IMG/VR virus record: IMGVR_UViG_2534681673_000006
Coordinates: 1 to 15,337 of that record
DNA: 15,337 nucleotides
Source: a virus
Taxonomy: Duplodnaviria > Heunggongvirae > Uroviricota > Caudoviricetes
Direction: 5' to 3' (one strand)
The position numbers were made by a program, and so were the translations under genes. The notes under the pieces are model-generated. The model had not been told where the DNA came from, made no database searches, and saw only the letters and a list, made by a program, of their open reading frames with translations. Positions 11,496-14,375 of the stretch are shown one piece after another (within the stretch, counting starts at the first letter, position 1; each line of letters opens with the position of its first letter).

Positions 11496-11928
11496 AACCC
11501 CCCCCATTTTCACAATCAGCAACAAGAATATTTTTAGCGTCATTCAGCGACCGCGTTGCGGTGTATCGGATACATTCCAGGGCGAATAGTGTGTATTCTT
11601 CCCTTTCTTCCTTTTGTGCAAGCTCTGCTGTGCATTCAATATCAATAAGCGCGTGCATCAGCGTAGTGAGTGCGGCGGCGGCTGCGTCCGGTGTGGTTTT
11701 ATTGCACATGTACCCCTCCGCATTTTTTTCGTTAGAAATAAGCGTTCTTCTTTCCTGTTCATCGATCAGGAATACGCAGACCTCACCGCTAAGGCGTTTA
11801 AGTAAGCCGATGATTGCCCCTGATTCGCTGTCGGTCATCATGCCTGGGTAATCCTCTGCCAGTGCGCAAATAACTTCGATTTGGTGGGCGCGTTCTGCTG
11901 CCTGTTGTAGTGTGATTTCCTGGCTCAT
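11488..11928 (-). CDS. Hypothetical protein, 146 aa
   Basis: GGGGGT SD; ATGA overlap with upstream gene. No recognisable domain. Confidence 0.5.
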   Translation of the reverse strand: MSQEITLQQAAERAHQIEVICALAEDYPGMMTDSESGAIIGLLKRLSGEVCVFLIDEQERRTLISNEKNAEGYMCNKTTPDAAAAALTTLMHALIDIECTAELAQKEEREEYTLFALECIRYTATRSLNDAKNILVADCENGGGYA

Positions 11929-12125
11929 AAGCCTACCCCCTGACGAATACGGGCGGCGAATACCATCACGCAGCCAGCCGGGGATTGCTGGCGTGCGTTC
12001 TGTTCGCTAGTGGCCTCGATGGTAATCACGCGCGGTTGTGCCGTGCTCAGGGCGATAAAACGCCAGGTGAATTTATTCAGGTTGTGCAAGTCCCGCCCTT
12101 GCGGGTGTGTGGTATGATTTCTCAT
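11925..12125 (-). CDS. Small protein, 66 aa, first gene of the leftward early operon; possibly Icd-like (tentative)
   Basis: Start at ATG 12125 with GAGGT SD. HPQGR and FAAR motifs resemble, from memory, P4-type Icd-like proteins. Downstream of the divergent operator region. Confidence 0.4.
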   Translation of the reverse strand: MRNHTTHPQGRDLHNLNKFTWRFIALSTAQPRVITIEATSEQNARQQSPAGCVMVFAARIRQGVGL

Positions 12126-12152: not shown

Positions 12153-12197
12153 GGTGGTTAGACGCCCTGCATGTGTTGCGAGCACTGCGGGGCGTTG
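12153..12197. repeat. Conserved ~45-bp stem-loop element, copy A; copy B at 12943-12992
   Basis: ggttagacgccc(t/c)g(c/t)atgtgtt...cactgcggggcgttg; about 85% identical. Both copies can form a 10-bp stem with one mismatch; loops differ. Confidence 0.5.
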
Positions 12198-12223: not shown

Positions 12224-12279
12224 TGTGCGCACAGATTAAAATCATATGTGCGCACAGATTAAAATCATATGTGCGCACA
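12224..12279. promoter_or_regulatory. Operator array: three copies of perfect palindrome TGTGCGCACA in 23-bp tandem repeats, in the divergent promoter region
   Basis: Palindromes at 12224-12233, 12247-12256, 12270-12279; repeat unit tgtgcgcacagattaaaatcata. A partial half-site tgtgcgcc sits at 12317-12324 near a candidate TTAACA-17-TATTGT promoter for the RHH gene. Confidence 0.55.
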
Positions 12280-12353
12280 TGTCAATACTTAACATCTCAT
12301 TTTTTTTGCTGTATTGTGTGCGCCCATAAAGTCCATTTAAGTGAGGTGCATCA

Positions 12354-12551
12354 ATGTCTAGCGGTAACACAAACAACAAATCAGCAAAGAAAAATATTCG
12401 ATTCCCACATGAGCTTATAGATGGGATTGATGCCAGCGTTGAACAAGAAAAATTAACTAATCCTAGTGCTAATTTTTCCGCATGGGTCTTAGATGCCTGT
12501 GGACGCAAATTAAAATATGAACAGCGCCGGAAGGCCAAAGAATCAGAATAA
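12354..12551 (+). CDS. Ribbon-helix-helix (CopG/Arc-like) DNA-binding protein, cassette 1
   Basis: 65 aa; GAGGTG SD 5 nt upstream. KNIRFPHELIDGIDASVEQEK...SANFSAWVLDACGRKL fits an RHH strand-helix-helix. Paralogous to the 13113-13292 protein. Confidence 0.65.
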   Translation: MSSGNTNNKSAKKNIRFPHELIDGIDASVEQEKLTNPSANFSAWVLDACGRKLKYEQRRKAKESE

Positions 12552-12600
12552 TCACTATCAGCGCCGTGGTGTGAGGTACTACGGCGCATTGCTTTACAGG
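12527..12600 (+). repeat. ~74-bp near-identical junction element (second copy 13268-13341) spanning the RHH gene 3' end and a hairpin
   Basis: aaggccaaagaatcagaataat(c/t)actatcagcgccgtgg(t/c)gtgaggtactacggcgcattgctttacagg. Stem gcgccgtgg/ctacggcgc with a GAGG-containing loop. Confidence 0.55.
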
Positions 12601-12608
12601 GCAGTAAC

Positions 12609-12836
12609 ATGACCAACAACACACTATCACCAATACAAGACACGCAAACGCAAGATGATGAAATCATCCGGCAAAGGCAGTCAGAAGCCTGCGCCAGACT
12701 TGAGGAAGAACTAACCAGAACAAAAATACCACCACCAGCGCCGCGCTTAGTTCCACCAGAAAAATTTGCCCTTGAAGATTTTGTCGATAAATACCCACGG
12801 CGGCTTAAATCCGGCAAAAACCGACCGCCAGGATGA
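12609..12836 (+). CDS. Small partner protein, cassette 1, 75 aa, unknown function
   Basis: Starts MTN; C-terminal motif FALEDFVDKYPRR is shared with the cassette-2 partner (FVLDEFLKKYSR). Proline-rich middle. No known domain. Confidence 0.5.
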   Translation: MTNNTLSPIQDTQTQDDEIIRQRQSEACARLEEELTRTKIPPPAPRLVPPEKFALEDFVDKYPRRLKSGKNRPPG

Positions 12837-12999
12837 GTGCACAAAACCGAACTATGAAACGGATTATTCCGTTTCCGGGGCGTTTGTGTGTGTATAAAGA
12901 GTAAGCTATGCTCTTTTATAGCCATAATCGTTACCTCAATTAATGGTTTGGTTAGACGCCCCGTATGTGTTCCCATCACTGCGGGGCGTTGTTGTTTTG

Positions 13000-13092
13000 G
13001 GTGTATTTCACCTTTATTTTTAAATCTACATTCAGGTGAAATACACCGCAAGACTTTTTTTATCTTTTTTTTTGCGTATACTGAAATACACC
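13000..13092. promoter_or_regulatory. Operator/promoter of cassette 2: perfect 13-bp inverted repeat ggtgtatttcacc / ggtgaaatacacc plus a third half-site overlapping a TATACT -10
   Basis: Arms at 13000-13012 and 13035-13047 (22-bp spacer); tgaaatacacc at 13082-13092 directly after TATACT (13077-13082). AGGAG SD follows. Confidence 0.55.
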
Positions 13093-13112
13093 GATTATCA
13101 GGAGAACCAGAA

Positions 13113-13292
13113 ATGGCAACAGGTGCAAAGAACGCAAAATCACAAATGACAACGGTCAGAATCCCGCATGAGGTAATGACCGATATTGAGCAACTTAAAG
13201 AACCTGGCGAAAGTACCGCCGGATTTCTAGTTACGGCAGCAAAAGGCGAGATCAAACGCCGCCAGCGCCGCAAGGCCAAAGAATCAGAATAA
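13113..13292 (+). CDS. Ribbon-helix-helix DNA-binding protein, cassette 2
   Basis: 59 aa from ATG 13113 (AGGAG SD). TTVRIPHEVMTDIEQLK...TAGFLVTAAKGEIKRRQ is paralogous to cassette 1 with divergent DNA. Shared C-terminus RRKAKESE. Confidence 0.65.
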   Translation: MATGAKNAKSQMTTVRIPHEVMTDIEQLKEPGESTAGFLVTAAKGEIKRRQRRKAKESE

Positions 13293-13349
13293 TTACTATC
13301 AGCGCCGTGGCGTGAGGTACTACGGCGCATTGCTTTACAGGTACACACA

Positions 13350-13765: not shown

Positions 13766-13789
13766 CCGATACCGAGATCCCGGTATCGG
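13766..13789. promoter_or_regulatory. Perfect 9-bp inverted repeat ccgataccg-agatcc-cggtatcgg downstream of alpA
   Basis: Read from sequence. No U-tract on either strand, so more likely a protein site or an mRNA 3' stabiliser than a terminator. Confidence 0.35.
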
Positions 13790-13829: not shown

Positions 13830-14018
13830 TTAGTGAACTGCCTTGCAGCTATCCTTCCAGGCCAAAACCTCAGATAAAGACCAGCCAACAGAACGCCCGC
13901 CAAGTTTACGACGTGATGGGAATTGTCCGGCCTTTTCCAGGCGGTAGCGGCATGAGCGGCTAAGGCCTGTTAGCTTTTCGCATTCTTTTTCACGTATAAA
14001 CCGATCAGTGCTTAACAC
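13830..14018 (-). CDS. alpA: AlpA-family transcriptional regulator / excisionase-like HTH protein
   Basis: 62 aa; RFIREKECEKLTGLSRSCRYRLEKAGQFPSRRKLGGRSVGWSLSEVLAWK matches the AlpA/Xis-type HTH pattern. Apparent GTG start with GGGGG SD. Adjacent to integrase. Confidence 0.75.
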   Translation of the reverse strand: MLSTDRFIREKECEKLTGLSRSCRYRLEKAGQFPSRRKLGGRSVGWSLSEVLAWKDSCKAVH

Positions 14019-14179
14019 TATTGCCCCCTTTCGTTTCTTAAAGAGTTATTTCGTGTTCTATTGCGTTGGGATGTGTCTGATTGTGTCAGGATGATTCAGA
14101 GTTGGCAAATGTTGGTGTCGCATGGTTTACAGAAAGAGGAATAATCAGGATAAAATCATTTAAATTCATGTTAATACAA

Positions 14180-14209
14180 AGGCATAAAATCTTGTTTTAT
14201 GCCTTTTTT
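14180..14209. terminator. Rho-independent terminator between int and alpA, possibly bidirectional
   Basis: Stem ggcataaaa/ttttatgcc (9 bp perfect), loop tcttg. TTTTTT follows on the plus strand; the interrupted run UUUGUAUU follows on the minus strand. Confidence 0.55.
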
Positions 14210-14308
14210 CGCACGCTTTAACGCGTAATTCACTAATGTATAAAAAACCAGCTGAGCATTAAAAATCAGTAACTTACAAATCTGTATTCTTTTTGGCCTC
14301 TTGTTCGT

Positions 14309-14375
14309 GATTGTGTCACGTTGTTGCACATTGTTTCACGTTGTATCTGTGCACTTATCCAGTATGCGCATACTG
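14309..14375. promoter_or_regulatory. Four 10-bp phased repeats (consensus nnCACGTTGT) followed by perfect 16-bp palindrome CAGTATGCGCATACTG
   Basis: tcgtgattgt gtcacgttgt tgcacattgt ttcacgttgt at 14309-14352; palindrome at 14360-14375. The 10-mer gattgtgtca recurs at 14079-14088 in the alpA promoter-proximal region. Confidence 0.5.

Follow-up and report, generated by a model that had tools for sequence, protein, structure and literature searches.

What reads the three copies of a short GTG...CAC repeat that stand ahead of a small regulator gene in this element, and what would be controlled from them? Judged by its genes alone, the window (the whole stretch of DNA that was analysed, 15,337 nt) is a capsid-forming PICI-type (cf-PICI) satellite, carrying int, alpA and replication genes together with terminase, HNH, portal, protease and capsid genes, and without tail genes. 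Pfam matches on the minus strand comprised TerL, TerS, HNH, portal, prohead protease, major capsid, SSB, an AAA_25 replication protein and DUF4222, and a tyrosine integrase gene extends past the right end of the window. A near-identical annotated element of E. coli STEC1587 (L001) is inserted in tqsA and is also without tail genes. The interval between the Icd-like gene and alpA holds two cassettes on the opposite strand, each ordered as hairpin, repeats, -10, small regulator gene, terminator-like hairpin and second small gene, and the repeats of cassette 2 occupy a 93-bp back-to-back promoter region (Table 1).

Table 1. Positions of the features discussed, in window coordinates unless a relative is named.
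Feature	Position	Strand	Remarks
Icd-like gene	11925-12125	-	NCBIfam
Cassette-1 operator set	12224-12326		TGTGCGCACA three times at 23-bp spacing, and TGTGCGCCCA abutting the -10 TATTGT
Stop-free frame, 497 codons	12242-13735	-	Antisense through both cassettes, downstream of alpA, towards the Icd-like gene
Long frame in relatives	L123 9767-11053; L095 2817-4046 (-)		
Cassette-1 regulator, YlcI/YnfO RHH, 65 aa	12354-12551	+	Recognition strand A-K-K-N-I-R
Conserved RNA hairpin	12955-12990	+	Just upstream of the operators; cassette-1 copy at 12161-12196
O3, distal candidate site, GGTGTATTTCACC	13000-13012		About +4 to +16 of the putative P_L; conservation 0.97
Putative P_L -10, TAGATT	13023-13028	-	Leading TA invariant
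O2, middle candidate site, GGTGAAATACACC	13035-13047		P_L spacer and -35 edge; conservation 0.90
Putative P_L -35, TTGCGG	13046-13051	-	TTGACG or TTGAAG in relatives
P_R -10, TATACT	13077-13082	+	Conservation 0.98; without a good -35
O1, proximal candidate site, ACTGAAATACACC	13080-13092		11/13 match; over the P_R -10 and expected start; conservation 0.95
Shine-Dalgarno of cassette-2 regulator, AGGAG	13100-13104	+	
Cassette-2 regulator, YlcI/YnfO-family ribbon-helix-helix (RHH), 59 aa	13113-13292	+	Recognition strand Q11-M-T-T-V-R16
Terminator-like hairpin between RHH gene and g2b	13302-13328	+	Cassette-1 copy at 12561-12587
g2b, small gene, 67 aa	13350-13553	+	Distant paralogue of g2a (12609-12836); missing in some relatives
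AlpA gene	13830-14018	-	Pfam

The preliminary description of this DNA was right that the two distal sites form a perfect 13-bp inverted repeat around a 22-bp spacer, O2 being the exact reverse complement of O3; read at greater length, the arms are of 14 nt (13000-13013 and 13034-13047), 100% complementary and 20 nt apart. A third copy was also found where it had been placed, at the TATACT -10, overlapping the last base(s) of that hexamer 31 nt before the ATG at 13113; it had been called a half-site and is instead a full pseudo-palindromic site, and TGAAATACACCG at 13082-13093 repeats the 12 nt of 13037-13048 perfectly and in direct orientation. When up to two mismatches are allowed, the 15.3-kb window contains three copies of the 13-mer, each of them inside the 93 bp (shuffle mean, 0.36), at site-to-site spacings of 35 and 45 bp. 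Since each 13-mer is its own dyad (GGTG-N5-CACC), and since the two distal copies are direct and not inverted repeats in several other alleles, the arrangement was read as three complete sites and not as a large palindrome with a half-site. As read from the letters, the operator unit is a single 11–13 bp pseudo-palindromic candidate site, repeated three times, and the perfect 13–14 bp inverted repeat found here is an extreme form, peculiar to its lineage. When 40 distinct upstream regions from the QMTT class, to which the cassette-2 protein belongs, are compared, conservation is 0.90–0.97 in the sites and 0.98 in the -10, against 0.53–0.62 in the spacers. The class spans more than 10 genera (Escherichia, Yersinia, Pectobacterium, Kosakonia, Hafnia, Raoultella, Xenorhabdus and others), in which the pairing of QMTTVRIPH with GTGTATTTCAC is maintained while the spacers drift.

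The inverted repeat also folds well as RNA, with a 14-bp stem in a single-sequence prediction, -50.1 kcal/mol for the 121-nt region (z = -7.5), and a terminator-like call at 12999-13013, the rival reading being a terminator or attenuator hairpin in place of protein-binding DNA. Among 25 distinct sequences, however, no pair showed a compensatory change; a T-to-G substitution in O3 stood uncompensated in nine sequences, the outer two pairs were unpaired in most, the direct-repeat distal copies of several alleles cannot pair, and the third copy lies over a -10. The hairpin reading of the repeat was discarded on the missing compensation despite the strong fold, and what probability it retains is very small. 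The conserved hairpin that directly precedes the operators shows covariation in 12 of its 14 pairs, and G.U pairs number 46 on the plus strand versus 4 on the minus; the covariation and the G.U bias together mark that hairpin as a plus-strand RNA element. A -10-like hexamer precedes it by 42–45 nt in 78 of 98 sequences. There may be a cis-antisense RNA of some 80 nt that covers the icd ribosome-binding site, although the hexamer also encodes conserved Icd residues. Rfam C4/CI and isrK RNAs gave no match at E up to 1 over the whole window.

The cassette-2 regulator gene, which starts 20 nt downstream of the repeats, encodes a member of the YlcI/YnfO family (NCBIfam NF041551, cut-off 30), scoring 62.1 bits, with 59.0 bits for the cassette-1 protein. 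In Pfam, only the cassette-1 protein passes DUF3950 (PF13132; 28.3 against a gathering threshold of 25), the cassette-2 protein having no match to it and nothing else credible. An AlphaFold (AF2) monomer model built with 32 homologues (pLDDT 87.7) is extended over residues 11-18, followed by helices at 19-28 and 35-58, and this predicted arrangement of an N-terminal strand and two helices is structurally similar to solved RHH domains. Sequence comparison with the PDB gave no relative of the family, and no solved RHH is detectably similar in sequence. Purifying selection acts on the gene (pN/pS 0.13, 35 distinct sequences), and the protein ends in a long basic tail, RRQRRKAKESE. The family has few members (116 representative clusters out of 1.84 billion), and no publication on YlcI/YnfO, or on an RHH regulator in PICIs, turned up in a literature search. 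In E. coli K-12, YlcI and YnfO sit in lambdoid prophages, in another context, so that family membership alone does not imply a replication repressor.

A comparison of operators across related elements, as the preliminary description had proposed, was carried out on 120 related loci (40 from species genomes and 80 from IMG/VR) plus the window, together containing 122 homologous genes. Classes were defined by the five residues that follow a conserved N-x-K-S and precede an Arg, one further residue and, usually, P-H, the length of this segment being fixed and the Arg invariant in the alignments examined. This gave 19 recognition-strand classes, each with its own repeated GTG-N5-7-CAC motif in the same three places and with the overlap of -10 and proximal site present in every class. 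The promoter-proximal site differs from the distal sites of its own class by a mean of 1.0 mismatch and from those of other classes by 3.25, and the motif centre co-varies with the predicted DNA-reading strand (permutation over 14 classes, p = 1e-5). QMTTV-R goes with GTGTATTTCAC, GTGAAATACAC or cTGA(A/C)ATACAC, KKLEA-R with GTGTCAGCCAC, QALKA-R with GTGTGGCCCAC, QQLNA-R with GTG(C/A)ATCGCAC, QS(V/I)T(A/V)-R with GTGTAAGACAC, QT(L/V)AA-R with GTGTTGAACAC, the AKKNI-R of cassette 1 with TGTGCGCACA, and an xxKxI-R-F subgroup with GTG-N6-CAC motifs. Classes that differ solely at residue 11, 13 or 15 have their operator in common (QSVTA/QSITV, QTLAA/QTVAA, KKLEA/RKLEA and QMTTV/QMTTI), whereas those that differ at 12 or 14 do not. 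In an RHH strand, core-facing and DNA-facing side chains alternate; we infer that residues 11, 13 and 15 of the YlcI/YnfO strand face the core, and 12 and 14 the DNA. Database proteins display 67 distinct recognition strands, with residues 12 and 14 in 31 combinations. With cognate sites over its own promoter that co-vary with it, the regulator has the sequence hallmarks of an autoregulated repressor acting on its operator.

Binding of the repeats by some factor other than the adjacent RHH protein (AlpA, a helper-phage protein, or a replication initiator using them as iterons) was considered, since the tandem 23-bp repeats of cassette 1 are iteron-like and AlpA is the known activator of these islands. 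The motif, however, tracks the RHH recognition strand, with alpA, int and the replication genes reassorting independently of it, and each motif is restricted to its own cassette, which makes another binder a very improbable choice. Searches of a phage collection at the DNA and protein levels returned no match to operator or regulator, and thus gave no evidence for the same operator or regulator in helper phages.

The reading that we favour, with a probability of roughly two in three, is that the three repeats are the predicted operator sites of the cassette-2 YlcI/YnfO RHH protein, that the protein shuts off itself and the early/replication operon, and that its alleles fall into allele-specific groups. 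The (G)GTG...CAC(C) flanks, which are family-wide, would probably be read by invariant residues such as Arg16 and the conserved N-terminal arm, and the 5-bp centre probably by residues 12 and 14 of the strand (Met and Thr here), which vary and face outward. The position of O1 over the -10 and start of the regulator's own promoter implies negative autoregulation. By way of O2, in the P_L spacer and -35, and O3, just past the P_L start, the regulator would also repress a leftward early promoter, so keeping both the satellite's early/replication operon and itself off. The preliminary description had placed the third copy over the -10 of the RHH gene, which holds, and had looked no further than that gene, whereas the predicted target is a pair of divergent promoters.

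For the putative leftward promoter, about 75 of 91 distinct upstream regions, across all classes, have their best sigma70 match on the minus strand at one and the same position; in nearly every class its -35 hexamer begins at -62 relative to the RHH ATG, and a TAnnnT follows after 17–18 nt. In the window, P_L reads TTGCGG-17-TAGATT, which matches the consensus only moderately, and a T-rich tract at 13054-13073 lies upstream of the P_R -10 (on the minus strand, an A-rich tract upstream of the P_L -35). A generic promoter scan of the window listed neither P_R nor P_L, and both are for this reason given as inferred. The order Icd(-), sites, RHH(+), alpA(-), int(-) was found in 76–87 of 118 loci, and in single-cassette relatives P_L points at the Icd-like gene and the replication genes.

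These observations bear on a more modest account, by which the sites are real RHH operators and the module is an accessory, autoregulated operon of RHH gene and g2 gene, O2 and O3 adding cooperativity to autorepression, P_L being unused, and the whole having no role in replication or immunity. That the g2 genes are variable or absent, that family members occur in other prophage contexts, that the P_L of cassette 2 faces no intact gene in the window, the Icd-like gene included, and that the scan left P_L unlisted would all suit it. It does not account for a TTGACG-like -35 and a TAnnnT -10 that are fixed in position in all allele classes despite the swapping of the sequence between them, for the invariant slot between alpA and the Icd-like/replication operon, which is shared by EcCICFT073, or for the presence of a non-homologous RHH in the same slot and geometry in two relatives (L042 and L095). 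We therefore consider an accessory operon unlikely, and retain the repression of both promoters as the preferred reading.

The order of an RHH gene followed by a small gene, with sites over the promoter, is also that of a toxin-antitoxin pair, in which the RHH protein would be the autoregulating antitoxin and g2b the toxin. Neither g2a nor g2b, however, matches a toxin, defence or functional family in Pfam, NCBIfam, PHROGs or PADLOC; g2 is absent from some loci (L096) and combines freely with different RHH alleles, the two genes are set apart by a terminator-like hairpin, and the g2 proteins look largely disordered from sequence. A conserved toxin gene coupled to the antitoxin gene, as in type II systems, was not found, and a toxin-antitoxin function is quite improbable.

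The two cassettes do have different operators, as originally claimed: the 13-mer is confined to cassette 2, and TGTGCGCACA occurs in the window solely at 12224, 12247 and 12270 and, with one mismatch, at 12317, all in cassette 1. The cassettes resemble each other in just two parts, the upstream hairpin (about 80%) and a block of 80 nt (97%; 12522-12600 and 13263-13341) made up of the last regulator codons and the terminator-like hairpin, the remainder being near random, and the operator and the N-terminal 45 codons are exchanged between cassettes as one unit. From position 12522 rightwards the window is matched by the closest E. coli genomes, which diverge exactly from that position leftwards, their own cassette 1 being of the KKLEA class with GGTGTCAGCCAC. 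The 80-nt block thus coincides with the breakpoint between the window and these relatives and is present in most related loci, so it is likely a recombination anchor as well as an attenuator. Among 5,426 complete genomes, the cassette-2 allele was found in 80, the cassette-1 allele in 69, and the combination of the window in none. The matched protein/operator pairs in 19 classes, their own-class mismatches and the mosaic cassettes bear out the suggestion of diversification made in the preliminary description. Since operator centre and reading residues change together, each allele would form its own specificity group, of an immunity type. In complete E. coli genomes each allele is present at most once per genome, where chance would give fewer than one double, and same-genome pairs among the fetched loci are mixed.

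Tandem cassettes are rare (5 of the elements read). An HMM scan found two family members in the window, L001 and L043, and in L042 and L095 an unrelated small RHH-like regulator that ends in RGIEPKG (L042 2167-2439, L095 3685-3864) fills one of the two slots and has its own GTG...CAC-type repeats (AGGTGGTCACCT and AGGTGACCACTT in L042) within the same flanks; in L042 the conserved flanking block follows it. The two tandem modules of the window would have arisen by recombination at the conserved flanking blocks. Cassette 2 would have lost its own Icd-like gene, so its P_L would read antisense through cassette 1 towards icd. The Shine-Dalgarno and ATG of a leftward gene are kept in cassette 2 (gaggtaacgattATG, 12923-12937 on the minus strand, ATG at 12925-12923), the gene behind this ATG having been replaced by the cassette-1 tail, and this start shares its frame with the long minus-strand ORF. 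In cassette 1, a 23-bp unit, TGTGCGCACAGATTAAAATCATA, spans 12224-12279 as two full copies and the 10-bp core of a third. Among the 69 E. coli genomes listed for the cassette-1 allele, the match is 23 bp shorter in several, from which operator copy number differs between strains.

Both cassettes lie antisense within a long stop-free minus-strand frame, which begins 95 nt past alpA with its own GAGGT Shine-Dalgarno. Of 43 distinct regions between alpA and icd, 18 are free of stops in the frame of Icd and 8 have a single one, where the other two frames have 2–49. Shuffles that preserved the plus-strand proteins gave P <= 0.005 for the open frame in each of 15 loci, and the frame remains open where a cassette has been replaced by an unrelated one. 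The long ORF of EcCICFT073 has 428 codons; its beginning is a weak Bro-N/Ant-like remnant and its end is the Icd-like protein. The frame was also considered as the true gene, with the RHH gene as a false call; this was rejected, given the pN/pS of 0.13, the curated family and the confident fold of the RHH protein. The pN/pS of the minus frame, 0.21, is uninformative, as a low value is expected from the shared wobble positions. From the resemblance to eta/kil of P4, translation of the frame may protect read-through driven from alpA; helper-activated alpA transcription, protected in this way, would cross the cassette to icd and the replication genes.

Several further repeats were seen around alpA. 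Direct repeats of the TGATTGTGTCA(G/C)G type lie upstream of alpA and near the int end (window 14071-14098 and 14301-14340), and may be binding sites for AlpA or a helper factor. A palindrome, CCGATACCGAGA/TCCCGGTATCGG, is located at 13766-13789, between the alpA stop and the long-ORF start, and a perfect 12-bp hairpin, AAAGGCATAAAA/TTTTATGCCTTT, lies between int and alpA, inside 14161-14242 (minus strand). That last interval gave the sole Rfam match, to the Brucella sRNA BSnc120, which at 27 bits against a gathering score of 114 was dismissed as chance.

Gram-negative PICIs have no known repressor, and the sole switch demonstrated for them is helper-activated AlpA, not repressor loss (PMC6092414). 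The model island EcCICFT073 runs from int through alpA, an opposite-strand small gene and a YlcI/YnfO gene to the Icd-like gene and on to primase. Its YlcI/YnfO gene (C_RS30120; L123, NC_004431.1 1380242-1381052) is of the QALKA class, with two copies of GGTGTGGCCCAC and one of cTGTCCCCCACC at the -10, and a literature search found no paper on the protein. A conserved candidate regulator with defined sites in the island control region is thus present both in EcCICFT073 and in cf-PICIs, which makes the repressor question directly testable. A broader proposal, which is speculative and which we hold only tentatively, is that the YlcI/YnfO RHH protein is the missing master repressor, or immunity determinant, of Gram-negative PICIs and cf-PICIs, EcCICFT073 included; that it is encoded antisense within an Eta-like, stop-free leader ORF between alpA and icd/replication; that it is overridden by helper-induced, AlpA-driven transcription with coupled translation; that diversification of residues 12 and 14 and of the operator centre has produced heteroimmunity groups; and that two-cassette elements are dual-specificity recombinants. 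Immunity of this kind, if real, would help to explain how several related satellites coexist in one genome. The matched alleles (at least 19 classes, and 31 residue-12/14 combinations) also offer a ready series from which to derive an RHH recognition code and orthogonal repressor parts. An RHH operator is as such ordinary; what is noteworthy is its place in a PICI control region, its presence in a model island, and the antisense Eta-like frame around it.

Like the RHH repressors P22 Arc/Mnt, pSM19035 omega, CopG and AmrZ, the cassette-2 protein is associated with several short sites that overlap a promoter, and the heptads of omega function in direct or inverted orientation. It differs from all of these in its 11–13 bp GTG-N5-CAC dyad, its basic C-terminal tail and the lack of detectable sequence similarity, and its binding is predicted. 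The position between an alpA/vis homologue and the replication genes is that of the P4 immunity region (vis, eta/kil, CI RNA, P_LE/P_LL) and of P1 immI (c4, icd, ant), which also resemble the present locus in having an internal promoter, putative here, inside a long ORF. In P4, kil lies within eta; translation of eta is coupled to that of vis (the alpA homologue) and prevents termination (PMC10111431). The Icd-like gene, nested in frame at the end of the long post-alpA ORF, resembles kil within eta. Unlike in P4 and P1, RNA immunity through a C4/CI or isrK RNA was not detected here, and the candidate immunity factor is an opposite-strand protein with DNA operators, not an RNA acting on the transcript. 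With Stl/Rpr of Gram-positive PICIs (SaPIs) the locus shares a divergent regulator beside a replication module and many allelic forms, and the cassette-2 regulator would be their functional counterpart (PMC6092414), although its fold and size are unrelated and the demonstrated induction of Gram-negative PICIs is by helper-activated AlpA, not by an anti-repressor. The tripartite operator of lambda differs in its regulator, which is helix-turn-helix and not RHH, in its spacings (35 and 45 bp here), and in positive autoregulation and a second regulator such as Cro, of which no sign was seen here. It is similar in that two back-to-back promoters, one of them the regulator's own, share three sites, and the exchange of mosaic modules flanked by conserved DNA is likewise that of heteroimmune lambdoid immunity regions.
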